DNA of 64,000 bases from an uncultured Anaerolineales bacterium (lineage in GTDB: Bacteria; Chloroflexota; Anaerolineae; Anaerolineales; UBA6663), in the NCBI GenBank assembly GCA_964480865.1, contig CAYZRP010000001.1:22096-86095 (forward strand). Reading direction: 5' to 3'. This document shows, one piece after another, positions 8,670 to 62,452 of this stretch. The translations under genes and the position numbers were made by a program. Positions within the stretch are counted from its first letter, which is position 1; each line of letters starts with the position of its first letter. The notes under the pieces were generated by a model. That model worked only from the letters and a program-made list of their open reading frames with translations. It searched no databases and had not been told where the DNA came from.

Positions 8670-8711
8670 GCGGGGCGCATGTCGGTGTCGTCCACCGGAC
8701 ATGCGCCCCGC
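8670..8711. promoter_or_regulatory. Intercistronic hairpin between the SBP gene and the first permease gene
   Basis: Perfect 14-bp stem: gcggggcgcatgtc (8670-8683) pairs with gacatgcgccccgc (8698-8711), loop 14 nt. On the mRNA it lies 23 nt after the SBP stop codon. Confidence 0.45.
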
Positions 8712-8733: not shown

Positions 8734-10131
8734 TTACTTGGTGACGTCCACCTGGTAACCCTGCGCCTGGGCCAGCGGGGAGAGCTGGTCGGCGATGTCG
8801 GGCAACACGGACTCGATCGTCTTCCCGTCTTTGAGCGCCGACTGCACGACCAGGCTGAACGGCGCGATCAGGTCAAAGCGAGGCCACTTGTCAAGCGGCG
8901 TGATCAGACCCGATGCCTCCTGATAGACCGGGAACGGATCGCTGGCGAACAGGGCGTTGCTGGCGACCGCCTGTTGCCACAGGTTCTGGATCGGCTTATA
9001 GGCCGGGTAGTTCGTGGTGCCTTTCCAGAAGTCGGGGGAGGTGGTGACCCACTGGATGAAGTCCACGGCCAGCCGCGGGTTCTTGGTGTGATTGGACACC
9101 ATCCAGGCCGAACCACCCATCGCCGGCGTCTGAGCCTGGGCATCGTCGGCCCACTTCAGCGGCGCGGCGACACCGAGTTGATGCTCAGCGGTCTTGTACC
9201 ACGAGCTGGCTTCGTTGCCGCCGAAGACGCCGAACATCCAGGCCGGGCCGGGCATCGCCAGCAACTTGTTGCTGGAGACGATGTTGGCGAAGTCGGCGCT
9301 GAAGTAGTCGGTGGTGAAGAGCGTCTTGTTGGCGATCATGTGGTCAACGAGTTGAGCCGCGCGGATGCAGCGTGGATCCGTCATGTCGATCTTGAGCTCG
9401 GAGTCGTTGACCAGCTCATGCGACGGGCAGCCGCTGGCGTCGAAGTAGCTGACGAACGTCCAGCCATCGCCAAACGTCCCCAGGTAATAGCCGGGGTGCT
9501 CAGCCGCGACCTTGTCGCTGAGCGCCTGGTATTCCTCGAACGTGGTTGGTACGCTGTAGCCGAACTCGTCCATGAGCGGCTGGTTGTAGTACAGCACGAA
9601 CATGGCCAGGTCGTAGCGCAGGCAGTAGACCTTGTCGCCGAACTGGCAGCCCGCCATCCCATCGTAGCCTGCGAGCACATCCGCCGGCACCCACGGGGTC
9701 AGGTCGAGCGGGAGGTGATGGGCAGCGTCAGACACCCGGGCGACGATGCGGGGCTCAGCGAAGACGACGTCCGGCCACCCCTGATCGGTGTTGTTGAACA
9801 ACAGGGTCTTGGCCGGCAGTTGCTCGCGGTCGACGGTGACCGCAGTGAGCAGGCTCGCCTTGTCGGGATGAGCCGCCACGTAGGCGTCAAAGGCCGGTTG
9901 GCGGTCGGCGTCGATCCAGACCGTCACCGGAGCGTTGTCGTCGTAGGGGTCGGCGGTTGGTTCCGGCGTGACGGTGACGACCACCTGAACGGGCGTGCCT
10001 TCGACGATCTGAGTCACGACTTGAGGTGCGGATGTCACGACGATCGGCGTTTGCGCCGGCGACGCACAGGCTGACAGGATCGCGGAGATCAGGGCCAGCC
10101 CGGCCGCGGACCTCCACTTGTTTTGAGTCAT
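8734..10131 (-). CDS. Extracellular solute-binding lipoprotein, sugar ABC transporter (CUT1 type)
   Basis: Signal peptide with lipobox (LALISAILSAC). 465 aa, the size typical of family 1 SBPs. Sits upstream of two permeases. Confidence 0.85.
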   Translation of the reverse strand: MTQNKWRSAAGLALISAILSACASPAQTPIVVTSAPQVVTQIVEGTPVQVVVTVTPEPTADPYDDNAPVTVWIDADRQPAFDAYVAAHPDKASLLTAVTVDREQLPAKTLLFNNTDQGWPDVVFAEPRIVARVSDAAHHLPLDLTPWVPADVLAGYDGMAGCQFGDKVYCLRYDLAMFVLYYNQPLMDEFGYSVPTTFEEYQALSDKVAAEHPGYYLGTFGDGWTFVSYFDASGCPSHELVNDSELKIDMTDPRCIRAAQLVDHMIANKTLFTTDYFSADFANIVSSNKLLAMPGPAWMFGVFGGNEASSWYKTAEHQLGVAAPLKWADDAQAQTPAMGGSAWMVSNHTKNPRLAVDFIQWVTTSPDFWKGTTNYPAYKPIQNLWQQAVASNALFASDPFPVYQEASGLITPLDKWPRFDLIAPFSLVVQSALKDGKTIESVLPDIADQLSPLAQAQGYQVDVTK

Positions 10132-12690: not shown

Positions 12691-14100
12691 ATGGGTGACG
12701 ATGATCAGGCCTCTTCGACCCTTGGGGATCTCATCCGCATCACCCGCGAAGAAACGCGGATGACCAACGGCAAACGTTGGACCCAGGATGAGCTCGCCAG
12801 CCGGGTCTTCACCAGCAAACAGTGGATCAGCCGCGTTGAGAGCGGGAAGGTGCTGCCTGCGTTCGAGCTGCTAATTCGGCTTCACGCGGTTCTGGCGGAA
12901 AACGCGGCCGGCGAACCGAGACTGCCCCTGGCCGTCTGGCTCCTCAAATGGCTGGAAGCGCAGATACCGGTGAACGAAAACTTTGCCGACCAGACTCGGC
13001 TGGAAATACAGGCCGCCATGGATCAGGCGGCCGGGGCGCTCGGTCGCCCGTTCTTCAATCGGCGGCCGAAGAAGATCCGCACCCTGTCCGACTTTCCACA
13101 TGCTTTTCAGCCGTTGACGATCATTTGTGGCGACAGGCGCGAAGATCCACCCCGAACCCGAGGCGATGTCTTCGCCTATTCGGTCTCGATCGTGGACCTG
13201 ACCTACCTGCTCGAACTCGGCTTGCGCGGCGACTCGGCGACCATCAAGTCTGACAAGCTCTTTGCCTGGATGGATGATGAGCGGCTGGAGCGGGAGTTCG
13301 GGAACACGAACCTCCTTGTCGTGGGTTCGCCTTCTGTGAATCTGGCCGCCCGGCGGATCAACACTCAGGCCGTGTTTCAGTTCGCTTTCGATCAAGAGAT
13401 CAAGGCGTGGGAAAGGCAGTTGCGCAACACAAAGGAGTTGAACGATCGCCAATACCTGCGCAAATTCTGGCAGATCGCGCGGAACAGCGAGTGGGCCCGG
13501 GATCCTGAAGCGCTGGGTCTTGACAACCTGATCGCCGGGGACGAAGAAGACAGTCTCGCTTCACGCGAGCGAGCGAAAAAAGTCGCCAGAATGGCGAAGG
13601 AGTTGCTCAAAGGCAACAAAGCCGCGTACTGGATGAACAGGTTTCGGAAGCCCGGGTTTCTCGACCCCGTCGACGGCGTCGTGCATGGCCTGTACACGCG
13701 GGAGGACAATGACTTCGGTTTGATCTCCCTTGCCAGAAACCCGTTCAGCAAGAACAAGGACTTTGTCTGCATTTTCGTCGCCGGGATCCATGGCCCCGGA
13801 ACCGCTCACGCGTTGCGGCTCCTTGGCGGACAGGAGCACTTCGAGAACCATCCTTTTGGTGGGGTCATCGAAGTGGAGTTGGATCTCTTCAATAAAGATG
13901 TTCCCAATCGTTTCGAGAATGTCCATTGGGAATGGCAAACGGGGAAATACACGCCTGCTTCATTGTCATCCGCTGTCGATCACGCGATGCGCCAGGCTCC
14001 CGCTCACCCGGAGGCCCTGTTCTCGTCATGGAGCGATGAAGAGCGCAGTGGCTACTTGCGATTCGTGCGCGACCTGACGGGGGCGGGCACCATGAGCTAA
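12691..14100 (+). CDS. XRE-family HTH protein with a large uncharacterised C-terminal domain
   Basis: The N-terminus WTQDELASRVFTSKQWISRVESGKVLPAFELLIRLHAVL is a Cro/C1-type HTH. The remaining 380 aa or so match no family I recognise. RBS aggggg lies upstream. Lys-rich with A/T-richer codons than its neighbours. Confidence 0.7.
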   Translation: MGDDDQASSTLGDLIRITREETRMTNGKRWTQDELASRVFTSKQWISRVESGKVLPAFELLIRLHAVLAENAAGEPRLPLAVWLLKWLEAQIPVNENFADQTRLEIQAAMDQAAGALGRPFFNRRPKKIRTLSDFPHAFQPLTIICGDRREDPPRTRGDVFAYSVSIVDLTYLLELGLRGDSATIKSDKLFAWMDDERLEREFGNTNLLVVGSPSVNLAARRINTQAVFQFAFDQEIKAWERQLRNTKELNDRQYLRKFWQIARNSEWARDPEALGLDNLIAGDEEDSLASRERAKKVARMAKELLKGNKAAYWMNRFRKPGFLDPVDGVVHGLYTREDNDFGLISLARNPFSKNKDFVCIFVAGIHGPGTAHALRLLGGQEHFENHPFGGVIEVELDLFNKDVPNRFENVHWEWQTGKYTPASLSSAVDHAMRQAPAHPEALFSSWSDEERSGYLRFVRDLTGAGTMS

Positions 14101-25006: not shown

Positions 25007-25660
25007 ATGCCGGGTCCCCGTCATGGACCTGGTTGGACGATGCCGAAACAGAGGAGCGCGCGGGTCATCATGAAGCAACAGAGCGGTAATCGGTTCGAAC
25101 GGTGGCTCGGCGCTGATGTTGACGGTGGAGTTTCACTGCGGGAGGAGCGGACAGGGCGCTGGATCTATGCCGGAGTCCTGGGCCTGCTGATGCTCAGCCT
25201 CGTCTGGGGTCCCGCCCATCCGATCTCCTCACGCTTTGCACTGGTGTGGTACCTGGGGCTCAGCGTCATGCTCGTGCCATTGAGCTGGATCCTTGCGCAC
25301 GTGGTGGACGACCGCCGGTCGCTGGCGAGCTGGAGTGCATCCATCGGGGCGCTCCTCGCTGGAGTTGTGATCCTGGTTGGCCTGGGGCAGGTCAGGATGG
25401 GCGACGCGTTCGGGGTGACGGGACCGTTGGGTCTCTGGCTCGTCAGCGTGGTGTTGTTTGGCCTGGCCCAGGTCCTGGTCGTCCGGCAGTGGCAGGCCTT
25501 CGGCGCTCACGTGCGCGATCTCCTGGCAACGCCCTTTGGGGCGCGCGAGCCGGCACCCGTCACCCACGTGATGGTCAACGTGACGACACCCCATCCGCCG
25601 ACCGCCGGCCGGCGCCAGCCCAGTCATGACGAGGTACCGGAGAGGCGAGACGTCGCCTGA
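25007..25660 (+). CDS. Membrane protein, function unknown (start uncertain)
   Basis: ATG at 25007 follows gaaggaaaagg. Five hydrophobic segments (WIYAGVLGLLMLSLVW, FALVWYLGLSVMLVPLSWILA, IGALLAGVVILVGLG, LGLWLVSVVLFGLAQVLVV). The upstream part of the listed ORF is not protein-like. Confidence 0.45.
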   Translation: MPGPRHGPGWTMPKQRSARVIMKQQSGNRFERWLGADVDGGVSLREERTGRWIYAGVLGLLMLSLVWGPAHPISSRFALVWYLGLSVMLVPLSWILAHVVDDRRSLASWSASIGALLAGVVILVGLGQVRMGDAFGVTGPLGLWLVSVVLFGLAQVLVVRQWQAFGAHVRDLLATPFGAREPAPVTHVMVNVTTPHPPTAGRRQPSHDEVPERRDVA

Positions 25661-25977
25661 CCTGATCAGACATGCCCCGGAAGGACGACCAGAGACCCTC
25701 CCTATCGTCCGAGCGGGCCTGATGGGTAAGGCTACGAACCAAGTTCCCTTTGAGGGACTCTCCGACCGATACCGGTGCTCACACGCGCTCTGGTCTGCGT
25801 GACCTCAACCTGACCTTGTCAGATAGCCCGTTTCGCACGTGCGACAATTCCTGTCTGGCATTCGCGCGGAGCGTCGAAACGCGAAGCCGGCCAAGAGCGT
25901 CGACCACTCCTTCAGCAGGCGGTGCCTCCTGGCTGCCGTCGAATCTCAGCTTGCGCCGTCCGGGAACCTGCCTGACC

Positions 25978-26526
25978 ATGGCCTCCACGATGATCCTTCA
26001 AACTGACAGGCTTGTCCTCCGTCGTCAGGTCATTGAAGATCTGGACGACCTGTGGTCGCTGTATGGCGATCCTGACATCACCCGGTTCATACCGGATGCG
26101 CCACGTTCACGCGAGGAAGCGCGCGAGGAGCTCGAGTGGCACATGCACGGGCATCCACGGAATCCACAGCTCGGGTTATGGGCGACGATTCACAAGCCGT
26201 CGGGGGCCTTCATCGGGCGCTGCGGGTTGCTTCCCTGGGCGATTGAGGGCCAGCCTGAAGTGGAAGTAGCCTACACCATCGCTCGAGCCTATTGGGGACA
26301 GGGCCTGGCGACGGAGGCGGCGCACGCCATTCTTCGCCATGGATTTGACAGCTTGAGGCTGACACGCCTCATCTGTCTGATCGACCCCGACAACATTGCC
26401 TCGCAGAGAGTCGCCGAGAAAATCGGCATGCACTTTGAGAAACGGGTGGCTGAATACGAAGGCGACGGCACGCCTTTCTTCGTCTATTCCGCCATGAGCC
26501 CTTCGACACGCACAGGCGCTCGATGA
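25978..26526 (+). CDS. GNAT-family N-acetyltransferase (RimJ/RimL-like)
   Basis: ILQTDRLVLRRQVIEDLDDLWSLYGDPDITRF...VEVAYTIARAYWGQGLATEAAHAILRHGFDSLRLTRLICLIDPDNIASQRVAEKIGM is the classic RimJ-type pattern. Confidence 0.8.
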   Translation: MASTMILQTDRLVLRRQVIEDLDDLWSLYGDPDITRFIPDAPRSREEAREELEWHMHGHPRNPQLGLWATIHKPSGAFIGRCGLLPWAIEGQPEVEVAYTIARAYWGQGLATEAAHAILRHGFDSLRLTRLICLIDPDNIASQRVAEKIGMHFEKRVAEYEGDGTPFFVYSAMSPSTRTGAR

Positions 26527-26696
26527 GCCACACCCCACGATCCAGTTGCGTTCTTCAAGGCGAGCCGACTGACGCAAGGTAGCATGCCGTGCAGCGGGGG
26601 CGCCGATGAGCTTCGACGTTACGCGGTATGCTCAGCTTCCCTCGGGTTGCCCAGAACCACCCGGTTTATCGCAGGAGCGCGAACGCCGACCTCTAC

Positions 26697-28766
26697 CTAC
26701 CGGACAGACACGTGCGAAAACGCGCAGTGACCGCCCGGGCCCACCGCGAGCCCGATCGCACCTGTGAGGTAAGCGTCATCCCGGTCCGTCCACTGCAGCT
26801 CGGCTTGATCATCGATGGACACGCGCACGGTCGGGCCGGAGACCTGTATGCGCAAGGAATACGAACGCCCATGGCTCCAGGCGAACGGCCTCTGAGCAAC
26901 CGCGTGATAGCCGCCGGCGTTCTTGAGGATGCCCAGTGTCCCGGCTGCAATGAGGCCCACGGCATATGAGCGGCGTGCCCCCTGGACCCGCACCAGGCCG
27001 ACATGCTGATCGCCCACCTGCGGTTGTAGGACGACCTGAAGCGTCAGGTCGCGCCAGTCGGGGTCGCCCAGATAGGTCTCACTCCAGCCCGGGCCGCTTC
27101 CATGGTAGGCGCCGTCGGCCAGCCGCCAGAAGCCGCGTAAGAACGTCCAACCGCTGATGGCGCCGTACTCGGGTCGTTCGCGCGAGAAGTCTGTCGAGAA
27201 CGACGGCGAGCCAGACCAATCCACGTGATCCAGAAGCAAAGGCCCGCTCCACGCTTCGCCGGTGTTGCGCAGCGTCAGGCCCACCTCGGTCAGCAGGACG
27301 TTGTCGAGCGTCGGGACCTGAAACGACACGGTCTGCCAGAGCCCGGGCGTCAGCCGCTCGCCAGCGACCGGATGGTCGCGGTCGGCAAACGCGTCGTGGA
27401 CGTACAGCGCGGCGTGAAGATCAGGCGGCGCGTTCAGCGGGACCCTGACCCGCGCCGTCACCGTTTGTCCGGGATAGATCTTGGGCGAGAAGCTTGCGCC
27501 GTAGTAATTGGCGCTCAACTCTTTCGGCCGATACAACGTTCGCACAGAGAGGCGGGCCTCGCCCTTTTTCTTCAAGTCGCGGATCGTGGCCTGCAGCGCC
27601 CCGCGGCCTACGGCGTCCTCGGCAGGCACACGGCGCACATCAAGGACCTCGGCCAGACGCGCCTGGGCCTTGAAGCCCTGCAGCGAGCCAGGGTAGTCGA
27701 AGTGATAGCGCGGCAGGGCGGGCGGCTCAGGCGCACCGACGATCCGGGCGCCGACGCGGGCCAGGGCATCGGCACAGGCCGGGATGCTCCAGAGGTTGCG
27801 GCTGCCGGCCAGGCTCGCCGCGACCAGCTCGTCGTTCATCGCCGCGCGCCAGTGAGACCCGATCCCGTCCAGGCCAACAGCCGTGCCCAAAATCGCGCCC
27901 ACGTTTCCAGCATTACAGTCGGTGTCCCAGCCGGCGTTTGTCGCGATCCGAATGCCGCGCGCGAAATCACCGCCGCTGTAGAGCAAGGCCAGCGCCACCA
28001 CGCCCGCGTTGGGGATGACGTGCACGACCCCGCCGTAGCGGTCATAGCCGAACCCGGCGGTCAGCATCGCATATGCCGAACGCCAGTCGTCCGGCGCTCC
28101 ACGATGGTGCGCAACCACAGCGTTGACGACGCGCGCATACGTGCTTGTGGCCGGGATCAGGGCGAGGCCGGCCTCGATCAGGGCGGCCGGATCAGGCGTG
28201 TCGAACGCGCGGCTGACCATGCCCGCGATGAAGCGCGCGCCCAATACGGCCTCACCATCGTGCGTCACGCGACTGGCGCGCTCGGCAAGGTCGGCCGCGA
28301 TCTCCGGACGCCCGGGAGCCACCAGGCCGAAGAGGTCGCTGAAGATCTGGCCGCCGATTTGCTCGGCGAGTGTCTGACCGTTGAGAGCCATCGATCCGCT
28401 CAGCGGCGCGCGGATGCCCGCGGCCAGGTTCGCGTAGGCGGTGTGCTCGGTCGAGACGCCATAGCCGCCCCACCAGAACGTGCCACGCCCATCGGCGATT
28501 TCGTTGAGCAGCGTCTCGCCGAATTGCTCGGACGTGACGGCCGCGCCATGTCGCTCGAGGGCACGCAGGAGCACCAGCGGCACCGAGGTGTCGTCGTCGG
28601 GCTTGAAGATCGTCCCAGGCGGCAGCGGCAGGAAATCCACGACCTCACCGAGGTTGGCCGCGATCTCGGCCGCCGTCCAGTTCTCCACCGGAGCACCGAG
28701 CCGCACGCCGATACACTTGCCGAGCCACCCGGCGTAGACACTGTCGCGATAGTTGAAGGAAAGCAT
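26697..28766 (-). CDS. ADP-ribosylglycohydrolase-family domain fused to a beta-sandwich and a LamG/ConA-like (DUF1080-like) C-terminal domain
   Basis: The N-terminal 330 aa or so carry PDDDTSVPLV and GWDTDCNAGNVGAILGTAVG (ARH dimetal motifs). The C-terminal 340 aa or so are beta-rich and end WTFLRGFWRLADGAYHG...YSLRIQVSGPTVRVSIDD...GAIGLAV, which is jelly-roll lectin-like. Confidence 0.8.
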   Translation of the reverse strand: MLSFNYRDSVYAGWLGKCIGVRLGAPVENWTAAEIAANLGEVVDFLPLPPGTIFKPDDDTSVPLVLLRALERHGAAVTSEQFGETLLNEIADGRGTFWWGGYGVSTEHTAYANLAAGIRAPLSGSMALNGQTLAEQIGGQIFSDLFGLVAPGRPEIAADLAERASRVTHDGEAVLGARFIAGMVSRAFDTPDPAALIEAGLALIPATSTYARVVNAVVAHHRGAPDDWRSAYAMLTAGFGYDRYGGVVHVIPNAGVVALALLYSGGDFARGIRIATNAGWDTDCNAGNVGAILGTAVGLDGIGSHWRAAMNDELVAASLAGSRNLWSIPACADALARVGARIVGAPEPPALPRYHFDYPGSLQGFKAQARLAEVLDVRRVPAEDAVGRGALQATIRDLKKKGEARLSVRTLYRPKELSANYYGASFSPKIYPGQTVTARVRVPLNAPPDLHAALYVHDAFADRDHPVAGERLTPGLWQTVSFQVPTLDNVLLTEVGLTLRNTGEAWSGPLLLDHVDWSGSPSFSTDFSRERPEYGAISGWTFLRGFWRLADGAYHGSGPGWSETYLGDPDWRDLTLQVVLQPQVGDQHVGLVRVQGARRSYAVGLIAAGTLGILKNAGGYHAVAQRPFAWSHGRSYSLRIQVSGPTVRVSIDDQAELQWTDRDDAYLTGAIGLAVGPGGHCAFSHVSVR

Positions 28767-34655: not shown

Positions 34656-35620
34656 CGACATTGTGTCTCGATCCATTCTGCGGCCCCGCCGATCCCTGTC
34701 GGTTCCTCGCCGCCAAGCGTCAACACGCGTCCATCGAATTTCGCAGCGGCCAGCCAGGCCCGCGGCCGGGCCAGCGGCGGCGGGTGGCAGACCGAGCCCG
34801 TCCGGACATCGACCCTTTCGACGAGGCCGAGGTAGCCGCTCGAGTCGAAACCGCCGACGATCAGGAGGTCGCCCTCCCACTCGAGCGCTGCGGCCCAGGT
34901 GCGCGCCTCGATCGACCACTCGAGCGTCGACCAGGCATGGCCTCCTACCTCGAGCCGCTCGACGACGGCCGAGTAACCGCCCTCGGTCGAGTATCCGCCA
35001 ATGGCGTACAGACTTTCCGCGATCGCCACGAGGGTCAGCCCACGCCGCGGAACGTTCAGCCGCGGCAGCTTCTCCCAGGCGTCCTCCTGCGGATCGTAAG
35101 CCTCGACCACGTCGCTGTAGCCGTCGAGGTCCGCGTCACTGGCGCCGTCGAACCCACCGGCCACCACGATCCGCTGGTCCCATACCGCGACGCCCGGCTC
35201 GCGACGCGGCGTCGGCAAATGCGTGACAGTAGTCCAGACCGCGTCGCCGCTGCCCAGCGCCTCGACCTCCGAGACCAGGCCGACTGTCGCGCTCCATCCT
35301 CCGACGACCCAGAGGCGATCCGCCAGGCTGACCAGGCCGTGCTGGCTGCGTGCCACGTTGAGCATCGGCCCCGAAACCCAGCGGTCGCCGTCGAGCCGTT
35401 CGACCGTGTCGAGTTGCGTCGTCGTGCCGCTCCAGCCGCCGACCGCGTACGGCTGCCCGGCCAGGACGCCGGCCGCCAGAGCCCGTCGTGGCGCGATCTC
35501 GGGCGGCGCCGCGCTGGCCGCGCAGGCGGAGAGGAAGAGCGCGAATGCGCAGACGAAGGACGAATGATGAAAGACGAAGGTTGAACGGCCGTTCAACTTG
35601 CGTCTCTCGTCATTGGTCAT
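34652..35620 (-). CDS. Exported Kelch-repeat beta-propeller lipoprotein
   Basis: Six Kelch-like units (YAVGGW..., LWVVGGW..., IVVAGGF..., LYAIGGY..., LLIVGGF..., VLTLGGE...). Signal peptide with FALFLSAC lipobox. Start ambiguous (ATG 35620, ATG 35638 or TTG 35596) because the 5' end lies inside a hairpin repeat. Confidence 0.75.
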   Translation of the reverse strand: MTNDERRKLNGRSTFVFHHSSFVCAFALFLSACAASAAPPEIAPRRALAAGVLAGQPYAVGGWSGTTTQLDTVERLDGDRWVSGPMLNVARSQHGLVSLADRLWVVGGWSATVGLVSEVEALGSGDAVWTTVTHLPTPRREPGVAVWDQRIVVAGGFDGASDADLDGYSDVVEAYDPQEDAWEKLPRLNVPRRGLTLVAIAESLYAIGGYSTEGGYSAVVERLEVGGHAWSTLEWSIEARTWAAALEWEGDLLIVGGFDSSGYLGLVERVDVRTGSVCHPPPLARPRAWLAAAKFDGRVLTLGGEEPTGIGGAAEWIETQCR

Positions 35621-35626
35621 TCGTCG
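35551..35626. repeat. Heptamer-array hairpin element A (GACGAAN units)
   Basis: Left arm gacgaag/gacgaat/gatgaaa/gacgaag (35552-35579). Central perfect 16-bp palindrome ttgaacggccgttcaa (35581-35596). Right arm ttgcgtc/tctcgtc/attggtc/attcgtc (35598-35625). The arms are imperfectly complementary. Shares the 13-mer tcgtcattggtca with element B. Confidence 0.6.
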
Positions 35627-36467: not shown

Positions 36468-37343
36468 CTACCCTTTGATGCCGACGCTGGCGATGCCGCC
36501 GATCAGGTACTTCTGGGCGAAGAAGTACAGCACCGCCGGCGGGACGACGCCGATCAGCGAACCGGCCATGATCAGGTTCCACTGGATGTTGTAACGACCC
36601 TTGAGCATGTTGAGCCCCAGTTGGATCGTGTAGTCGTCGTACTTGCTGATGTAGATCAGGGGGTCAAGGAACTCATTCCATGTCCACAGGAAGGTCAGCA
36701 CGCCCGTCACCACCATCGGCGGAACGCACAGCGGCAGGATGATCTTGATGAACACGTCCCAGGTCGAGGCGCCGTCGATCCGGGCCGCCTCGTCGAGGTC
36801 GCGCGGGATCGTCATGATGTACTGGCGCATCAGAAAGATGAAGAACGCGTTGCCGAAAAACGAAGGCACGATCAGGGGCAGGTAACTGCCCACCCAGCCC
36901 AACCACTGGAAGACGACGAAACGCGGCAGGAGCATGATCTGGCCCGGGATCATGAGCGTCGCCAGGAGCAGCATGAACAGCATGTTGCGCCCCGGGAAGC
37001 GCAGACGGGCGAAGGCGAAGGCCACAAGCGTGCACGAGAAGAGATGGCCGATGATGTTCATCACCGCGATGAACAGCGAGTTGAGCCCGAACCGCACAAA
37101 CGGGATCTGGGTCAGGACGTCGGTGAAGTTCTGCCAGCGGATCGGATCTGGCCAGTAGACCGGTGGCCACGCAAAGATCTGACCGGGCTCCTTGAAGGCG
37201 GTCAGCGCCATCCAACCGATGGGGATGCCGACCATGACCAGGGCGAGCCCGGTGAGGGTCAGGAAGACCAGGATGGAGTTCAGGTGCCGCAGGGCGGCCA
37301 GGGCAGGGCGACCAGCCGGCTTCGGGACGTCGAGCACGCTCAT
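36468..37343 (-). CDS. Carbohydrate ABC transporter permease (MalG-like)
   Basis: EAA loop DLDEAARIDGASTWDVFIKIILPLCVP. Start at 37343 forms an ATGA overlap with the upstream permease stop. Confidence 0.85.
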   Translation of the reverse strand: MSVLDVPKPAGRPALAALRHLNSILVFLTLTGLALVMVGIPIGWMALTAFKEPGQIFAWPPVYWPDPIRWQNFTDVLTQIPFVRFGLNSLFIAVMNIIGHLFSCTLVAFAFARLRFPGRNMLFMLLLATLMIPGQIMLLPRFVVFQWLGWVGSYLPLIVPSFFGNAFFIFLMRQYIMTIPRDLDEAARIDGASTWDVFIKIILPLCVPPMVVTGVLTFLWTWNEFLDPLIYISKYDDYTIQLGLNMLKGRYNIQWNLIMAGSLIGVVPPAVLYFFAQKYLIGGIASVGIKG

Positions 37344-38257
37344 GCGTCGTTGCCCTTTCCTTCGGACTCGTAGTAGACCCACAGCGGAGAACTGCGGAAG
37401 ACCAGGGCCGTGAACCCCATGATGATGACGGCCATGATCCAGGCCAGCGCTGAGGCATAGCCCATATCGAAGTCCTCAAAGGCCGTCCGGAACATGTAGA
37501 ACATGTAGAAGAGCGTCGAGCGCGCCGGGCCGCCGCCGGTGATGACGTACACGGCCGTGAACACCTGAAACGCGTCGATGAGCTCCATCACCAGCTGGAA
37601 CAGGATCGTGGGCGAAAGCATCGGCAGCGTGACGTTCCAGAACTTCGCCCACAGCCCGGCGCCGTCGATCTCGGCCGCCTCGTACAGGTGTGGCGGGATG
37701 TTTTGCAGCCCGGCTAGGTAGATGATGGCGCCGCCGCCGACCCGCCACAGGCTCATCAACGCCACGCTCGGCAGGGACCACTCCGGGCTCCAGAACCAGT
37801 TCGGCCCCTGGATCCCGACCATCGCCAGCAGCGTGTTGGCCACGCCATACTCGGGGTTGAGCAGCCACATCCACATCAACGCCACCGAGACGCCCGACAG
37901 CACGACCGGCAGATAGAACAGCGTGCGGAAGATCCGCATGCCCGGCACCGGATTGTTGAGCAGCAGCGACAGCCCCAGCCCGGCCGCCAGGTTGAGCGGC
38001 AGCGAGATCGCCACGTACGTGAACGTGACGCGCATCGATTGCCAGAAGTCCGGATCCTTTGTGAAGATCCGGACGTAGTTGTCGAGGCCGACCCACTTCG
38101 GCGGCACCGTGATCTGCCAGTCGGTGAAACTCAGGCCAAGCGAGGCGATAAACGGCCCGAGCGTGAACACCAGGAATCCGATCAGCCACGGGCTGATGCC
38201 GATGTAGCCTTCGATGGCTTCGCGCGTCGCGGGGCGGAGGTTGAGGCGTTCTGGCAT
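37340..38257 (-). CDS. Carbohydrate ABC transporter permease (MalF-like)
   Basis: EAA loop HLYEAAEIDGAGLWAKFWNVTLPMLSP. Six TM segments. RBS gaggt upstream of ATG 38257. Confidence 0.85.
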   Translation of the reverse strand: MPERLNLRPATREAIEGYIGISPWLIGFLVFTLGPFIASLGLSFTDWQITVPPKWVGLDNYVRIFTKDPDFWQSMRVTFTYVAISLPLNLAAGLGLSLLLNNPVPGMRIFRTLFYLPVVLSGVSVALMWMWLLNPEYGVANTLLAMVGIQGPNWFWSPEWSLPSVALMSLWRVGGGAIIYLAGLQNIPPHLYEAAEIDGAGLWAKFWNVTLPMLSPTILFQLVMELIDAFQVFTAVYVITGGGPARSTLFYMFYMFRTAFEDFDMGYASALAWIMAVIIMGFTALVFRSSPLWVYYESEGKGNDA

Positions 38258-38270
38258 GCTTACCTCAGGG

Positions 38271-38426
38271 CGACGAACGACGAATGACGAACGACGAAGG
38301 TCAGGTGGCCGTGATGACAGGCCTTATGCCGGCCGAGAGTGGCACGCGGCTCGTGCGCTACTCTCGGGCCTGGGCACAACCTTCGTCATTCGTCCTTCGT
38401 CATTCGTCTGCTTTCGTCATTGGTCA
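38271..38426. repeat. Heptamer-array hairpin element B (YGACGAA units) between the SBP and permease genes
   Basis: Left arm cgacgaa/cgacgaa/tgacgaa/cgacgaa/gg (38271-38300). Right arm cc/ttcgtca/ttcgtcc/ttcgtca/ttcgtct (38380-38409), plus ttcgtca/ttggtca extending to 38426. The arms pair at 26 of 29 positions. The 79-nt loop contains an inner hairpin (gccgagagt...actctcgggc). Confidence 0.65.
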
Positions 38427-38435
38427 GCCGACCAG

Positions 38436-39779
38436 CTAGCTCAACCCCAGCGCCTTGCGCTCAGTGTCGACGATCTCCTGAGCGGCGGCCACAGCCGCGT
38501 CGAGCTCGCCCTTGATCTTGTCACGCTCGATGTCGCCCAGATAGATCCTGTCGTACAGGTCCTGGTTCAGGCGCGTGACCTTGCTGAAGTACGGGAAGCG
38601 CCCCGAGAACTCCCAGACCTGCGGGGTCTTGAGGATCTCGAAGAAGAACTTGACGCGCGCGTCATCCTTGGCCGGGTGCTCGGGCCACAACGCCGGGATG
38701 TTGGCCGTGTAGCCCTTGTTCTGGGCCTGCAGGAAGCGCTGGCCGTCCGTGCCTGTCATCCACTTCAGCCACTCCCAGGCCGCGTCCTTCTTCTGGCTGG
38801 CCTTGGGGATGCCCAGCTGGAGCGTCCAGCCGTTTGTGATGACTTCCTGGCCTTCGACCTTCGGATTATGCACAAGGCCGAACTTGACGCCTGAGCCATC
38901 GACGCGCTGGAACTGGCCGTTGTTGAGGCCGGCGAAGCCGAGGCGGCCGGTCATGAACAGATCGATCGGGCCGGTGCCCTCGGTGCTGAGTGCCTGGAAC
39001 TCCGAGAAGGTCGGCACCGCGCCGGAGCGTGCAAGGTCCCACATGAACTCGAAGGCCGCCACGGTCTCGGGCCCGTTCATGTAGCCGTCGACGACCTTGC
39101 CCTCGTTGTCGAAGGGGCGGGCGCCGAACGCGAAGAACTCCGCGCGCCAGACGCGCGTGGGCATCGCGGCGCCGAAGATCTTCTTGTCGCGATCGGTGAG
39201 GGCGACGGCGTCTTCCATCCACTGCTGCATCGTATAGCCCCACTCGGGGGCCTTCAGGCCCTTCTCACCGAACAGGGTCTCGTTGTAGAAGTACATGGTC
39301 GCGCCGACGCCGATCGGCATGCCGATGATCTGCTCGCCGTAGCGGCAGCGCGAGTCGAAGTGCACCTTCGAGTACATGCCGAGGTCGACCTTGTCGCGAT
39401 CGATGTAGGTGCGAAGATCCTCGGCCTGCGGGAACCAGTCCGCGCTCCAGAAAGTGGTGACGTCGGGCACGCCTGAGCCGGTGCCGAGCACCGTCGTCAT
39501 CTTCTCCGAGAAGCCGTCGTCGGGCAGGAAGGTGGCGTTGACCTTGACGGTCTTGCCAGCCTCGCTGGCCTGGAAGGCGTCGAGCCAGGCGCGCTGCGTG
39601 GGTTCGTCGCCGACGTCGGCGCCTCCGACCGTCCACCAATCGATCTCGGTGACCGGGACTGCAGTGGCCGGGACCGCTGTGGGGGTGGCCGCAGGTGTGC
39701 AGGCACCCAGGGCGAGGCCTGCGGTGGTGTAGCCCGCATATTGCAGGAAGGCACGGCGGGACAGGGTGTTGAGTTTCAT
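38436..39779 (-). CDS. Extracellular solute-binding lipoprotein, sugar ABC transporter (CUT1 type)
   Basis: ATG at 39779 follows ggaggaaag. MKLNTLSRRAFLQYAGYTTAGLALGAC gives a Tat-like RR motif plus lipobox. About 447 aa, family 1 SBP size. Confidence 0.85.
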   Translation of the reverse strand: MKLNTLSRRAFLQYAGYTTAGLALGACTPAATPTAVPATAVPVTEIDWWTVGGADVGDEPTQRAWLDAFQASEAGKTVKVNATFLPDDGFSEKMTTVLGTGSGVPDVTTFWSADWFPQAEDLRTYIDRDKVDLGMYSKVHFDSRCRYGEQIIGMPIGVGATMYFYNETLFGEKGLKAPEWGYTMQQWMEDAVALTDRDKKIFGAAMPTRVWRAEFFAFGARPFDNEGKVVDGYMNGPETVAAFEFMWDLARSGAVPTFSEFQALSTEGTGPIDLFMTGRLGFAGLNNGQFQRVDGSGVKFGLVHNPKVEGQEVITNGWTLQLGIPKASQKKDAAWEWLKWMTGTDGQRFLQAQNKGYTANIPALWPEHPAKDDARVKFFFEILKTPQVWEFSGRFPYFSKVTRLNQDLYDRIYLGDIERDKIKGELDAAVAAAQEIVDTERKALGLS

Positions 39780-56333: not shown

Positions 56334-57338
56334 ATGAATCTTATTAACGCCTGTCGAATGATTGCGATTGCGTCACTGACGGTTGCTGCCGTTGGCTGCA
56401 CCCCGGCAGCGACCCCGGCACCCGCCGCGCCCACAGAAGGCGCCAAGACCATCCGGGTCGCCATGATCACGTCTGGCCCCACCAATGATCATGGGTGGCA
56501 CCAGAACGCCCTGGAGGGCCTCCAGTCCATCAACAAGGAACTGGGCTACGAGATCGCCTACTCCGAAAGCGTCGAATCGGCGCAACAGCAGAACACCCTG
56601 CGCCAGTATGCCCAGCAGGGCTACAACCTGATCTACTGCCACGGCTATGAGTGGGGCGAGGCCCTCAAGGCGGTTGCACCCGATTTCCCGGATACGATGT
56701 TCGTCCAGATCAACGCCACGACCGAAGGCGCTAACATCGTGGGCACGAACTTCAAGTTCGGCGAACTTGGCTACTTTGCGGGCATGGCCGCCGGCATGAT
56801 GACCAAGAACGGCAAGATCGGCATCGTGGCCGCGCAGGACGCCCCGCAGGTGACCGCGGACTCCGACACGATCCAGCTCGGCGCCAAGGCCGTCAATGCG
56901 GACGCCGACGTCAACGTCTCGTTCGTGGGTTCGTGGGACGACGTGGTCAAGGGCCAGCAGGTGACGCAGGCCCAGATCGATCGCGGTGTCGACGTCCTCA
57001 TCATCATCGGCGACTCCTTCGCGCCACCGGCGATTGAGCTGGCCAAGTCGAAGGGCATCATGGTCATCGGCGGCTGGAGTGGCGATGCGCACGACCTCGC
57101 CCCCGACACCGTGATCACGAGCGCCGTTCAGGACGTCCCGGGCGTGTACCTGTCAGTCGCCAGGCAGTACGGGGCCGGCACCCTCAAGGGCGGCACCTCC
57201 TTCGTCAGCGGGTTCGCCGAGAAGACGCAGAAGATGGGCGTCTGGGGCGACTTCGTCCCCGCCGAGGTCAAGGACAAGGTGAATGCCGCCATCGCCGACT
57301 ATCTCGACGGCAAGCTCGATTTCCCGGTGCTCAAGTAG
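56334..57338 (+). CDS. BMP-family (PnrA/Med-like) ABC transporter substrate-binding lipoprotein
   Basis: RBS ggagaaggag. Signal peptide plus lipobox (LTVAAVGC). IRVAMITSGPTNDHGWHQNALEGL...GYNLIYCHGYEWGEA is typical of the basic-membrane-protein (nucleoside/purine-binding) family. Confidence 0.85.
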   Translation: MNLINACRMIAIASLTVAAVGCTPAATPAPAAPTEGAKTIRVAMITSGPTNDHGWHQNALEGLQSINKELGYEIAYSESVESAQQQNTLRQYAQQGYNLIYCHGYEWGEALKAVAPDFPDTMFVQINATTEGANIVGTNFKFGELGYFAGMAAGMMTKNGKIGIVAAQDAPQVTADSDTIQLGAKAVNADADVNVSFVGSWDDVVKGQQVTQAQIDRGVDVLIIIGDSFAPPAIELAKSKGIMVIGGWSGDAHDLAPDTVITSAVQDVPGVYLSVARQYGAGTLKGGTSFVSGFAEKTQKMGVWGDFVPAEVKDKVNAAIADYLDGKLDFPVLK

Positions 57339-57383: not shown

Positions 57384-57529
57384 AGACGGGTGCCCCGCCG
57401 GAACGTCGAGCGGGGGTGGGGAGCGTAGAGCGTAAAGCGTGGAGCGACCACGCTGCCGCGATCCGGCGCGTTCGCGTGAACGCTCCACGCTCTACGCTCC
57501 ACGCCCTACGCTCCGAGGGGCGCCCGTCT
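57384..57529. repeat. Heptamer-array hairpin element C (GAGCGTN units), nested inside an outer stem
   Basis: Outer stem: agacgggtgcccc (57384-57396) pairs with ggggcgcccgtct (57517-57529) at 12 of 13 positions. Inner left arm g/gagcgta/gagcgta/aagcgtg/gagcg (57420-57446). Inner right arm cgctc/cacgctc/tacgctc/cacgccc/tacgctc/c (57481-57514). Confidence 0.65.
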
Positions 57530-59713: not shown

Positions 59714-61311
59714 GCACGCAAACCGTCTCCCCAAGCCCGGCCGAAACGCCCGCGAACGGCGACACCGTCCTGGAGCTGCGCCATATCGTCAAGCGTTTCC
59801 CCGGGATCGTGGCCAACGATCACGTCAGCCTGAAGATCCGCGCCGGTGAAGTGCACGCGTTGCTCGGCGAGAACGGCGCGGGCAAGTCCACGCTGATGAA
59901 GGTGGTCTACGGCCTGTATCAGAAGGACGAGGGCGAGATCCTGGTCCGCAACCAGCCCGCGCAGATCCGCGTCCCACAGGATGCGATGGCGCTGGGCATT
60001 GGCATGGTGCACCAGCACTTCATGCTGGTTCCTACCTTTACGGTGCTCGAGAACATCATCCTCGGGCTGCGGACGGGTCGGTACCCGCTGCTTGACCTGG
60101 GGGAAAGCCTCGCACAGATCAAGACCCTGGCCGACGACTTCGGCCTGAACGCTCCGCTCTCGGCCAAGGTCGGCGCCCTCACCGTCGGTCAGCAGCAGAA
60201 AGTCGAGATCATCAAGGCGCTCTACCGGGGCGCGCGCATCCTGATCCTCGACGAGCCGACGGCCGTGCTGATCCCGCAGGAGGCCGAGGAGCTCTTCAAG
60301 CTCATCGAGCATCTGCGCGCCGACGGCGTGACCCTGATCTTCATCAGCCACAAACTGAAGGAAGTGCTGCGCGTGAGCGACAGGATCACGGTCATGCGTC
60401 GCGGGCAGCTGATCGACACTCGTGACACCGCCGCCACGACGATCACCGAACTCGCCGAACTCATGGTCGGCAAGGCGGTGGATCTGACCATCGCCAAGCG
60501 ACCCACGACGCCCGGCGAGAACCATCTAGAGCTTCGGAAGGTCACGACGCGCGTTGACCAGGAGACCCGGCCGCTGCAGGAACTCGATCTCGCGTTGCGC
60601 TCCGGCGAGATCCATGGGCTGGCGGGCGTCGACGGCAACGGGCAGCAGGCATTGGTGCAGGCCATCATGGGGCTCTGCCCGCTGGCCGGCGGCCAGGTGC
60701 TCTACCACGGCCGGGATATCGCGGCCATGGAGACGTCCGAACGAATCAGCCGCGGGATCGAGCACATCCCCGAGAACCGGCACACCGAGGGCCTGGTGCT
60801 CGGCCTGAACGTCACCGACAACCTGCTCCTCGAGCGTTTCGAGCGGCCGCCTTTCGCGAGCCGGGGGATGCGCCAGTTTAAGACGATGCACGAGCACGCC
60901 GCGACGCTGATGCGGAAGTTCGACATCCGCGCGCCCAACCCGGACGTGCAGACGCTGAAACTTTCAGGCGGCAACCAGCAGAAGGTCATCCTGGCGCGAT
61001 CGCTCTGGCCGGACCCGACCGTGCTGATCGCGATGCAACCGACGCGCGGACTTGACGTCGGCGCTGCCTCCTTCATCCACAAGCAGATGGTCGAGGCCCG
61101 CGACCGCGGCTGTGCCGTCCTGATCATCTCCTCCGAACTGGACGAGATCATGGCCGTCAGCGACGTCATCAGCGTGATCTACGAAGGCAAAATCGTCGAG
61201 ACACGCGCGACCAAAGACACGAACCTGAACCGCATCGGCTTCCTGATGGCCGGCGGCCGGCCCGAAGAAGCGCCGGTCGGGCCGGCAGAGGAAGTGACGT
61301 ACTTGACGTGA
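59710..61311 (+). CDS. ABC transporter ATP-binding protein with two fused ABC domains
   Basis: ATGA overlap at 59710-59713. First Walker A GENGAGKSTLMK, signature LTVGQQQKVEIIKAL, Walker B ILILDEPT. Second domain: GVDGNGQQAL, LSGGNQQKVILARSL. Confidence 0.9.
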   Translation: MSTQTVSPSPAETPANGDTVLELRHIVKRFPGIVANDHVSLKIRAGEVHALLGENGAGKSTLMKVVYGLYQKDEGEILVRNQPAQIRVPQDAMALGIGMVHQHFMLVPTFTVLENIILGLRTGRYPLLDLGESLAQIKTLADDFGLNAPLSAKVGALTVGQQQKVEIIKALYRGARILILDEPTAVLIPQEAEELFKLIEHLRADGVTLIFISHKLKEVLRVSDRITVMRRGQLIDTRDTAATTITELAELMVGKAVDLTIAKRPTTPGENHLELRKVTTRVDQETRPLQELDLALRSGEIHGLAGVDGNGQQALVQAIMGLCPLAGGQVLYHGRDIAAMETSERISRGIEHIPENRHTEGLVLGLNVTDNLLLERFERPPFASRGMRQFKTMHEHAATLMRKFDIRAPNPDVQTLKLSGGNQQKVILARSLWPDPTVLIAMQPTRGLDVGAASFIHKQMVEARDRGCAVLIISSELDEIMAVSDVISVIYEGKIVETRATKDTNLNRIGFLMAGGRPEEAPVGPAEEVTYLT

Positions 61312-61331
61312 AGGCGACCTGACCCCGACCT

Positions 61332-61427
61332 GACCGCAGACGGCGGACCGCGGACCGCAGACGTTCAGGCCGAGGTGCCTTTGGTGTTTCCGCAACTGCT
61401 GCGGTCCGCGGTCCGCCGTCTGCGGTC
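61332..61427. terminator. Heptamer-array hairpin element D (GACCGCN units): perfect 29-bp inverted repeat between convergent genes
   Basis: gaccgca/gacggcg/gaccgcg/gaccgca/g (61332-61360) is exactly complementary to 61399-61427. Loop 38 nt. It starts 20 nt after the ATPase stop and touches the stop codon of the convergent dehydrogenase. Confidence 0.7.
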
Positions 61428-62452
61428 TATGCCAACCTGTACACCAACTCCGCGCCGGCCAGTACGTTGACGACGTTCTGGTAGTCGTCGAGGCGCAGGT
61501 CGCGCTGGGCGGTGGGCACGGTGCCGGCGGCGGTGTGCGGCGTCAGGACCACGTTGACCGTGGGCGGGCGCGACGGCGCCAGCAGCGGGCAATCCGGTCG
61601 GATCGGCTCGTAAGTGAAGTTGTCGACGGCGACGCCGTACAGGCGACCGGAGGCGATGGCCTCCGCCAGGGCGGCTTCATCGATGGTGCCGCTGCCGCCC
61701 GCGCTGACGAAGCAGGCGCCCGGCTTGAGTTTGGCGAAGAACTCGGCGTTCAGGCTCTGATCGGTTTCGGGCAGGAGCGGGAGCAGGGCGCAGACGAAGT
61801 CGCTGGCGGCCAGCAGATCATCGAGGGGTGCGTAGCGGGCGGCGAGTTCGCGCTCGGCATGATTCGGGAGGCGATTGCGCTTGTTGTAGAGCACCTGACA
61901 ACCGAAGGGCTTGAGCCGACGCGCCAGTTCGAAACCGATCTCGCCCATTCCGACGATGCCGATCGTCGAGCCCCACAGGCCACGCAGGTCGGTTCGCGCG
62001 GACCAGTTGTAGGCGAAGTAGTCCTCGGTACAACGGGTCGGCTCAAGTCCGAACGGATCCGCGCTCAAGACGACCTCGGTCAGCTCACGGGCGCGCTTGG
62101 CGAGGCTGAGCATCTGCATGAAGAGATGCTCGGCCACCATGATGCAGGTGCGGATCGGCAGGTAGCAGACGGGGACGCCGGCGGCGCGGGCCGCTTCGAG
62201 GTCGATGTCGTGGGTCTGGGATCCCCAGCGCTGGATCAGGCGCAGCGACGTCCCGGCCTTGATGACGTCGGCGTCGATCACGCCCGAGCGCTCGGTGATC
62301 AGGAACTCTTTGCCCGGGACCGCGGCGATGACGTCTGCCAGGGTTGGGGTGCGCAGCACCGTGATGTCCAGTTCCGGCGGCGCGGCTTCCAGAGCCGCCT
62401 GTTGGTGGTACAGGCCGCGGTGCGTGATGAACAGAGTCGGATGTTTGATCAT
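61427..62452 (-). CDS. D-isomer-specific 2-hydroxyacid dehydrogenase family protein
   Basis: ATG at 62452 follows gaagggga. NAD-binding GSTIGIVGMGEIGFELARRL. The catalytic-domain pattern ends NVVLTPHTAAGT. Confidence 0.85.
   Translation of the reverse strand: MIKHPTLFITHRGLYHQQAALEAAPPELDITVLRTPTLADVIAAVPGKEFLITERSGVIDADVIKAGTSLRLIQRWGSQTHDIDLEAARAAGVPVCYLPIRTCIMVAEHLFMQMLSLAKRARELTEVVLSADPFGLEPTRCTEDYFAYNWSARTDLRGLWGSTIGIVGMGEIGFELARRLKPFGCQVLYNKRNRLPNHAERELAARYAPLDDLLAASDFVCALLPLLPETDQSLNAEFFAKLKPGACFVSAGGSGTIDEAALAEAIASGRLYGVAVDNFTYEPIRPDCPLLAPSRPPTVNVVLTPHTAAGTVPTAQRDLRLDDYQNVVNVLAGAELVYRLA

Follow-up and report, generated by a model that had tools for sequence, protein, structure and literature searches.

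What are long hairpins, in which each arm is itself a tandem array of 7-nucleotide (nt) units, doing at the gene junctions of a bacterial genome, and how did they come to be there? The question is raised by a 64,000-nt stretch of DNA from an uncultured Anaerolineales bacterium (contig CAYZRP010000001.1, positions 22,096 to 86,095 of the forward strand), referred to here as the window, in which an initial annotation had proposed four such elements. They are designated A, B, C, and D (Table 1), and element B occupies positions 38271 to 38426. The four elements are real and far beyond chance. The reading that we favor, with modest confidence, is that the heptamer arms grew in place by slippage and that the elements are transcribed intercistronic or 3' stem-loops that would stabilize the upstream message and attenuate the downstream one.

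All four elements were found where the initial annotation had placed them, and with the common grammar that it had described, one arm composed of tandem heptamers and the opposite arm of the complementary heptamers, the unit differing between elements. Tandem Repeats Finder (TRF) detected period-7 arrays on both arms of A, B, C, and D, and these elements are the top four by length among the inverted repeats of the window. A strict autocorrelation scan (arrays of at least three units, with an inverted partner within 200 nt) returned six period-7 arrays, all in B, C, and D and all six with an inverted partner; element A is more degenerate, and its period-7 array was detected at a looser threshold only. 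The same scan found no period-8 or period-9 arrays in the window, and none of its five period-5 and two period-6 arrays was partnered. In 100 dinucleotide-preserving shuffles of the window, the mean number of period-7 arrays was 0.37, and inverted pairs never occurred. Folding, which had been proposed as a check, gave predicted energies of -44 to -108 kcal/mol (z = -4.5 to -11.6) for the elements, and no shuffled sequence was equally stable.

The arms consist of about four units each, and the unit counts of the two arms are unequal: one side of B carries two additional units that are unpaired, and in C four units face five. A 14-nt (two-unit) super-period was detected by TRF in both arms of B (100% matches) and in the 3' arm of C (95%). 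The stem of B is built of 6-bp blocks with a mismatch or wobble at each seventh position between them, and its fold on the transcribed strand was predicted at -90.1 kcal/mol (z = -11.6). Predicted folds of the other elements were -103.2 kcal/mol for C, -82.6 and -83.1 kcal/mol for D, and -43.7 (minus strand) and -49.4 (plus strand) kcal/mol for A. The arrays of D are 36 nt apart, and the arms of its inverted repeat are 28 nt apart. Three unrelated units lie within 26 kb of one genome. The 13-mer said to be common to A and B, tcgtcattggtca, is indeed present in both. Other details of the initial description needed correction: the unit GACCGCN given for D is present but is mixed with GACGGCG, and the statement that every unit begins with GA followed by C or G depends on the register chosen and fails for unselected units elsewhere, such as TGGTAGT and AGTCGTT.

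The elements lie at gene junctions in two sugar/nucleoside ABC-transporter operons, and the closest named relatives of the flanking proteins are from metagenome-assembled genomes (MAGs) of Anaerolineales and Chloroflexota. When orthologous junctions were compared, as had been suggested at the outset, a hairpin was found to be kept at the site while its sequence and units varied. At the site of B, all seven orthologous loci (73-86% protein identity) had inverted-repeat sequence a few bases past the stop codon, and these sequences were mutually unrelated. Four of these spacers were folded and formed predicted hairpins (z = -3.9 to -6.3). According to TRF, one orthologue (L140) had a 7-nt unit in about two copies to either side, three of the seven had plain stems, and one had inverted GGACCGC-type motifs in which TRF found no array. 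The spacers after the binding-protein gene in L139 and L154 contained no TRF-detected array. Among strain variants, one contig lacked 17 nt from an arm of B. No second copy of the center of B was present in the window or in 150 fetched loci, except at the same site in strain variants. A stem-loop is also found after a paralogous binding-protein gene in the window, where the spacer before the permease gene contains a hairpin that is not built of heptamers (-64.7 kcal/mol; z = -4.7); thus, a stem-loop after the binding-protein gene recurs at such junctions whatever the repeat type.

Two orthologues of the B site had other architectures. The arms at the site in L141, a lower-GC relative, were considered as heptamers and rejected because TRF gave a period of 8; the hairpin there (L141:3843-3958) has purine-rich and pyrimidine-rich period-8 tandem arms (GACAGGGA, AGAGATTG / TCTCCCTG), and repeat-armed hairpins are therefore not strictly bound to 7 nt. 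The spacer in L144 (L144:735-840) has two hairpin copies resembling repetitive extragenic palindromic (REP) elements (CTGCAGGTGCGGCTC..AGCCGCAC), about 70 nt apart, rather than a single stem.

Comparisons at the sites of C and A point to a local origin of the repeats. Element C is identical in strain L129, which is 98.8% identical to the window overall. In a relative with 89% protein identity (L146), the site is homologous, with a rearranged sequence, a different unit count, and a 36-nt central indel. Relatives at 68-79% protein identity have a plain hairpin, and because its core, GGGTGCGGGG...CCCCGCACCC, matches the outer stem of C, the heptamer arms of C are nested within an older stem. At the site of A, the relative L154 has a tight GTGA overlap of the two genes. 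The last codons of its upstream gene (T-N-D-E) contain three decaying heptamers (GACGAAC GACGAGC GACCGGC), and there is a weak complementary stretch in the signal-peptide codons of its downstream gene. Since the abhydrolase of the window ends in ...A-T-N-D-Q, the unit of A is ancestral coding sequence that was amplified in place. At one gene junction a natural series can be followed from a plain hairpin in distant relatives through a short proto-repeat in closer ones to the four-unit heptamer hairpin of the window, so that local growth is directly visible. The retention of a hairpin with rapid turnover of its sequence, together with the precursors of A and C in relatives, argues for local growth and not for insertion of a mobile element.

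Element A also differs from the others in that it overlaps coding sequence; the description of the elements as intergenic holds for B, C, and D but not for A. Within one of its arms the abhydrolase gene terminates (stop codon 35612-35610, minus strand) and the following gene is called to start (start codon 35620-35618, minus strand). TFVFHHSSFV, a portion of a signal peptide that directly precedes a normal lipobox, LSAC, is encoded by the opposite arm. The signal peptides of homologues of this Kelch lipoprotein are about 16 residues shorter. The peptides of the TNDERR and SFV types had been dismissed as products of spurious open reading frames, which is the case for B, but one frame through A is very probably translated. 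The Kelch-repeat (NanM-like) lipoprotein has apparently gained an N-terminal extension, MTNDERRKLNGRSTFVFHHSSFV, that is encoded by A itself (35525-35620, minus strand); its homologues start about 16 residues later, with M(R/K)x...AAC. The differences of strain L001 within the extension (C to S, A to V, and F to I) keep the frame, and the peptide is still hydrophobic.

Element D is a hot spot of variation. When the window was compared with strain L129, 56 of 172 differences, along with all 20 gaps, were located in D, and the loop of D (61360-61400) is wholly different in that strain (13053-13098). The L129 loop aligned somewhat better with the reverse complement of the loop in the window (score, 5.0, compared with a mean of -3.8 [standard deviation, 2.7; maximum, 6.0] for shuffled sequences), which weakly suggests that recombination between the arms inverted the loop but is too insignificant for a claim. 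Between the stop codon of the ATPase gene and the first unit of D there is an 11-nt direct repeat, CGACCTGACCC, in 1.9 copies (61315-61335); it is missing in L129, where the ATPase gene ends in TAA, not TGA. In a relative with a complete genome (68% protein identity), the 400-nt spacer at the same convergent gene end (L151:11928-12327) contains three long, nearly perfect, AT-rich palindromes with arms of 20-30 bp and no heptamer periodicity. From these non-heptamer palindromes, long hairpins at gene ends seem to be general in the clade, with heptamers just one way to build them.

Whether further copies exist, and whether the arrays exceed shuffled expectation, had been left to a wider scan. 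The excess within the window is given above, and further copies are plentiful, so that the refuting outcome named at the outset, an absence of other copies, clearly did not occur. Among 185,579 species genomes scanned for three tandem GACGAAN units, at least 118 genome stretches matched, and the phyla among the matches listed were Chloroflexota, Planctomycetota, Verrucomicrobiota, Cyanobacteria, Acidobacteriota, and Bacteroidota. The cyanobacterial matches mix ATTCGTC and ATTGGTC, the two units in the 13-mer of A and B. In 833 kb fetched from more than 100 other genomes, selected via GACGAAN matches, there were 295 period-7 arrays, 130 of which were not of the searched type, along with 33 arrays of period 6, 29 of period 8, and 12 of period 9; with the searched unit excluded, period 7 was about fourfold commoner than period 6 or 8. 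About one-fifth of the arrays in this sample were paired, which gave 29 hairpins. Unselected hairpin units included GGTCCAA, AGTAGTC, ACCGTGA, GGTAGAC, GGTGGAC, TGGTAGT, and AGTCGTT. According to a crude gene caller, 16 hairpins were between co-directional genes, 4 between convergent genes, and 3 between divergent genes, and the hairpins often began a few bases past the upstream stop codon. In a viral collection, GACGAAN and GACCAAN arrays were 2 to 2.7 times commoner than composition-matched permutations; the arrays on viral contigs were solitary, and no close inverted pairs were found there.

The order of the arms in a hairpin is identical when it is read on either DNA strand and is hence an intrinsic property. 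In GACGAA-type hairpins the purine-rich GACGAA array was the 5' arm in 20 of 20 cases (P = 2e-6), and in hairpins with other units the purine-rich arm was 5' in 10 of 12 (P = 0.04), giving 30 of 32 overall. No earlier analysis of arm polarity was found in the papers on heptamer repeats that were consulted, and in Xanthomonas the convergent G-rich pairs seem to have this purine-first order as well. As for the reason, we infer that a transcript made in either direction would expose the purine-rich, C-poor arm first, which may be a poor substrate for Rho, and that the pyrimidine-rich arm, coming second, might form a weak RNA:DNA hybrid as the hairpin closes.

Table 1. Positions of the repeat elements, their parts, and the genes beside them in the 64,000-nt window
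Feature	Position	Strand	Description
Element A	35551-35626	minus	Hairpin at abhydrolase/Kelch-lipoprotein gene junction of a minus-strand operon; inverted repeat I1
A, 5' array	35552-35579		Four GACGAAN-type units, read on + strand: GACGAAG GACGAAT GATGAAA GACGAAG
A, center	35580-35597		Perfect 18-nt palindrome, GTTGAACGGCCGTTCAAC
A, 3' array	35598-35625		Four NTTCGTC-type units, read on + strand: TTGCGTC TCTCGTC ATTGGTC ATTCGTC
Element B	38271-38426	minus	Fills spacer between solute-binding-protein gene and first permease gene; inverted repeat I4
First permease gene	37340-38257	minus	Flanks B
Solute-binding-protein gene	38436-39779	minus	Flanks B
B, first array	38272-38299		Read on + strand: GACGAAC GACGAAT GACGAAC GACGAAG
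B, central region	38300-38380		79 nt between arrays, 77 nt between inverted-repeat arms; own sub-hairpins
B, second array	38381-38408		Four units, read on + strand: CTTCGTC ATTCGTC CTTCGTC ATTCGTC, then TGC
B, extra unpaired units	38412-38425		Read on + strand: TTTCGTC ATTGGTC
Element C	57384-57529	plus	Spacer between Bmp/PnrA-type binding-protein gene and permease gene; inverted repeats I3, I5, I6
Bmp/PnrA-type binding-protein gene	56334-57338	plus	Upstream of C
Permease gene	Start near 57559		Downstream of C
C, outer 13-bp stem	57384-57396 with 57517-57529		
C, inner array	57421-57448		GAGCGTA GAGCGTA AAGCGTG GAGCGAC
C, inner array	57480-57514		Five units: ACGCTCC ACGCTCT ACGCTCC ACGCCCT ACGCTCC
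Element D	61332-61427		Between convergent genes; inverted repeat I2, 94% complementary
ABC ATPase gene	Stop 61309-61311	plus	Flanks D; ends the transporter operon of C
2-Hydroxyacid dehydrogenase gene	Stop 61427-61429	minus	Flanks D
D, first array	61332-61363		GACCGCA GACGGCG GACCGCG GACCGCA GACG
D, second array	61400-61427		TGCGGTC CGCGGTC CGCCGTC TGCGGTC
Comparator hairpin, not heptameric	8671-8710	minus	Spacer between paralogous binding-protein gene and its permease gene
Paralogous binding-protein gene	8734-10131	minus	
Its permease gene	7672-8628	minus	

In the mechanism that we propose, replication slippage would lengthen the heptamer arms by 7 or 14 nt at a time, each arm separately, at sites that already hold a hairpin or a short proto-repeat. 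Slippage was among the options named in the initial annotation, and it is favored by the 14-nt super-periods, the unequal arm counts, the 17-nt deletion in B, the hot spot at D, and the precursors of A and C. The elements would be transcribed with their ABC-transporter operons, as are the REP elements in operons of Escherichia coli, in which a stem-loop shields the upstream message and limits downstream expression. A long stem-loop would block 3'-to-5' exonucleases and so stabilize the upstream binding-protein message, and the hairpin would lower read-through or downstream expression, with the result that more binding protein than permease is made. Repeated arms could tolerate indels by pairing in another register, which may be why unequal unit numbers and fast turnover are tolerated.

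Several observations weigh against this reading. The position of A to D is the single line of evidence that points to an RNA role for them. The sense fold was the more stable in 8 cases and the antisense fold in 8, so that G-U pairing gave no hint of RNA-level selection. No U-tract follows the stem in B, C, or D, which hence are not canonical intrinsic terminators; a terminator consensus scan flagged none of the three, only the inner palindrome plus T-rich 3' arm of A, on the transcribed strand. A lies in coding sequence and is thus no simple 3' element. The genes that lie upstream of such hairpins in other phyla are diverse, and binding-protein genes are not enriched among them; a preference for such genes was unseen outside the window, where the upstream genes include those for EF-Tu, GARS, a glucanotransferase, and MoxR. 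A structure that is under weak constraint and largely neutral would also be expected to vary as extremely as D does. Finally, arbitrary local slippage leaves three things unexplained, namely, the recurrence of GAC(G/C)AAT units across phyla, the occurrence of C- and D-like units at other sites in relatives, and the near-constant 5' position of the purine-rich arm.

It is possible, though unlikely, that the hairpins are largely neutral by-products of slippage and palindrome-correcting template switching wherever spacers tolerate them, with no function beyond that of the older hairpin being decorated. The hypervariability of D between strains would be expected on such an account, as would fold stability without a sense-strand bias, diverse flanking genes in other phyla, the spread of A into coding sequence, and the plain hairpins of relatives at the same sites; heptamers are also reported to be over-represented in many bacteria, for which polymerase slippage has been proposed (PMC4692102). 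However, neutral slippage does not predict arm polarity; both arm orders should occur, yet the purine-rich arm was 5' in nearly all of the hairpins scored. C is identical between strains that differ by 1.2% elsewhere. Long, near-perfect palindromes are normally unstable in bacterial DNA, and their persistence here suggests some benefit.

The initial annotation had also suggested a protein that reads 7-nt registers. In this rather doubtful explanation the arrays would be bound by a trans-acting factor, such as an OB-fold/cold-shock-type protein or a small RNA, that reads them as RNA or single-stranded DNA, and the hairpin form and conserved unit would reflect recognition, not stability alone. 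GAC(G/C)AAT units in at least six phyla are consistent with such a factor, as are the effect on a reporter of an array upstream of Nostoc genes, the excess of GACGAAN and GACCAAN arrays over permuted controls in the viral collection, the strict polarity of the GACGAA-type hairpins, and the modal number of about four units per arm, which is also that of Xanthomonas; CspB reportedly binds direct repeats of heptamers, with each heptamer taken up by one protein (PMC4679880). A reader of this kind is hard to reconcile with three unrelated units within 26 kb and many more elsewhere, with an orthologous site of period 8 in one relative and plain stems in others, and with paired arms, which hide the units from a single-strand reader, and no candidate protein gene linked to the elements was found within the window.

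A broader proposal, which we regard as quite improbable, is that the hairpins are the product of some conserved process or factor, as yet undescribed, by which 7-nt registers are written or read. Candidates are a protein dedicated to binding RNA or single-stranded DNA and a specialized repair/template-switching pathway that builds hairpins at gene ends. The recurrence of GAC(G/C)AAT units in Chloroflexota, Planctomycetota, Verrucomicrobiota, and Cyanobacteria, the purine-first arms, and the approximately four units per arm would be more in keeping with such a process than with chance slippage combined with generic selection for a stem.

It is similarly improbable that the elements are RNase III processing sites that separate the binding-protein and permease cistrons and give them different half-lives. 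RNase III needs roughly 20 to 22 bp of double strand. The stems of about 26-34 bp, which lie at intercistronic junctions, exceed that length, and REP stems are far shorter; however, stems of 12-20 bp at orthologous sites indicate that long double-stranded RNA is dispensable there, and the mismatch at each seventh position in B may disfavor cleavage.

The idea of mobility, which was raised in the initial annotation and for which we found no evidence, is very improbable: small non-autonomous mobile elements (REP/REPIN elements or MITEs, the miniature inverted-repeat transposable elements) that insert at hairpins or gene ends with a transposase encoded elsewhere could account for the units and 13-mer common to A and B, the D- and C-like units at other sites in a related species, the heptamer arms of C inside an older stem, like a nested insertion, and the REP tag motifs CGTC and GTAG inside units (PMC3733652), but no central-region or flank sequence is common to any two elements, no target-site duplications are visible at element ends, no transposase gene is found among the annotated neighbors of the four elements, arm unit counts differ, and A is traceable to codons present at the site in a relative.

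A further candidate reason for 7-nt units, the placement of stop codons in all three frames, was rejected: GACGAAT and GAGCGTA contain stops, and D has none on either strand.

The elements have consequences for assembly. Independent short-read contigs of this species (L003-L006, L008-L010, and L130-L138) end inside B and C, at about 38380-38440 and 57509. Seven of the ten contigs that carry the binding-protein gene of B end 20-57 nt past its stop codon, at B, and eight of the ten contigs with the Bmp gene end exactly 171 nt past its stop codon, inside the 3' arm of C. Contig ends inside B and C indicate that the hairpins break de Bruijn assemblies, just past the upstream gene, and their abundance in MAGs is probably underestimated.

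Other hairpins and motifs were observed in the window and in related genomes. A perfect 17-bp hairpin with a 5-nt loop (ACAAGGGACGGGCCGAC / GTCGGCCCGTCCCTTGT) lies between convergent genes at positions 356-394; this ordinary terminator-like stem lacks a T-tract, and here too the 5' arm is purine rich. Positions 25651-26706, about 1 kb, are without a confidently called gene in a gene map based on GC content at third codon positions (GC3). Short GGAGCGC doublets are present at L154:4108-4206, and the spacers past the binding-protein gene in L139 and L154 contain GGACCGC-type inverted motifs; both motifs sit at junctions other than those of the GAGCGTN and GACCGCN elements of the window, and the clade may use a limited repertoire of units. 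A Pirellulales MAG (DASSFG010000023.1; L097:1-2800) has, in a stretch of 3 kb, four or five heptamer hairpins with GACGAAT and GGTAGAC units; almost all of the spacers between small genes there hold one, a density far above that of the window.

We know of no accepted function or origin for heptamer repeats, which have been noted in cyanobacteria since 1990 and as over-represented in bacterial genomes since 2007. The results add Chloroflexota, Planctomycetota, and Verrucomicrobiota to the range of hairpin-forming heptamer arrays. Also new are the sequences of the units, their coexistence as several types within a single genome, the local origin that could be traced, and the rule of arm polarity. 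If the proposed role as stabilizer and attenuator is correct, the elements would be a functional counterpart of REPs in phyla without described REPs. A process that reads or writes 7-nt registers, if true, would be far more interesting than a variant of a known architecture.

The initial annotation did not recognize a named family of REPs, bacterial interspersed mosaic elements (BIMEs), or MITEs, and this was borne out. An Rfam 15 search, which it had also proposed, gave no match in the whole window at gathering thresholds, and permissive thresholds returned only sub-threshold models of eukaryotic microRNA precursors, which resemble any long hairpin. No flanking direct repeats, as expected of a MITE, were read in the sequence at A to D, and no second copy of a central region was found in the window or in the fetched loci.

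The classic case of a REP between a binding-protein gene and a permease gene is reportedly that of malE-malF. Like REPs and BIMEs, the elements of the window are stem-loops after a gene in a co-directional or convergent context, and by analogy their likely action is to stabilize the upstream message and limit the downstream one. REP325 acts both as terminator and as stabilizer, and tandem gene pairs with REPs are upstream-biased in expression (bioRxiv 10.64898/2026.03.23.713779). REPs are conserved, imperfect palindromes of 20-40 bp with an unpaired GTAG or CGTC tag and dedicated RAYT transposases (PMC3733652). Whereas the near-identical copies of REPs and BIMEs number in the hundreds, the elements of the window are 76-156 nt long, have arms that are internally tandem-repetitive, and, in the 64 kb examined, have no common full-length consensus, with a center in B that is unique. 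CGTC occurs in A, B, and D and GTAG in C, inside paired units and not as a single unpaired terminal tag.

Direct TAACTGA repeats have been described in Beggiatoaceae, Cyanobacteria, and Bacteroidetes (MacGregor 2015, PMC4679880). They too are intergenic heptamer arrays of 2-6 units, patchy across phyla, in which contigs end as a result of assembly problems, and a post-transcriptional role has been suggested for them. Unlike the arrays of the window, they are almost all direct (one inverted among 170 sets), have a single AT-rich unit, and lie just upstream of start codons in forward orientation.

The short tandemly repeated repetitive (STRR) heptamers of cyanobacteria, reportedly treated by Mazel et al. 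in 1990, are likewise heptamer arrays in intergenic DNA. In Nostoc, GAC(C/T)AAT arrays lie upstream of at least 13 genes, and deletion of an array alters reporter output (bioRxiv 10.1101/2022.06.06.494920). The Nostoc unit GACCAAT / ATTGGTC is also present, by either common descent or convergence, in A and B, each of which has one ATTGGTC among ATTCGTC units; the units of C and D are unrelated. Arrays in cyanobacteria are mostly solitary and direct and are often upstream of start codons, with few inverted pairs reported in Nostoc (PMC4692102), whereas the arrays of the window are all hairpin pairs.

The closest parallel in architecture is found in Xanthomonas. The elements of the window belong to a kind of repeat that has been described before, heptameric simple-sequence repeats in inverted pairs, and are not a new class; the initial annotation had treated heptamer periodicity within hairpin arms as unusual, but it has been described in Xanthomonas (PMC4692102), and the GAC(C/T)AAT arrays of Nostoc were also known. 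It had held that a match to a described repeat family would count against its proposal, and here the architecture fits the inverted heptamer pairs of Xanthomonas, while the sequence family does not. Each Xanthomonas genome has 183-186 GGGAATC heptamer arrays, mostly of four units, and 70-75 convergent inverted pairs that are potential stem-loops; the repeats are transcribed, and 83% of their positions are common to two species, with varying lengths (Rehm et al. 2015, PMC4692102). The same paper cites a finding from 2007 of an excess of heptamers among the simple repeats of bacteria. The differences are that Xanthomonas is a gammaproteobacterium and not a member of the Chloroflexota, and that it has one G-rich unit family, studied as a quadruplex former, compared with the three unrelated units of the window; GACGAAN, GAGCGTN, and GACCGCN are without G-tracts and hence without GGGAATC-like quadruplex potential. 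The Xanthomonas study proposed no role at operon junctions, and arm polarity was not analyzed in it. In other respects the window resembles the pairs of X. campestris and X. axonopodis: 7-nt units are arranged head to tail, mostly in intergenic DNA (B, C, and D, with A overlapping coding sequence), the modal number of units is four, convergent arrays on opposite strands form stem-loops, the G-rich, purine-rich array apparently comes first, and positions are kept between related species as length and sequence vary.

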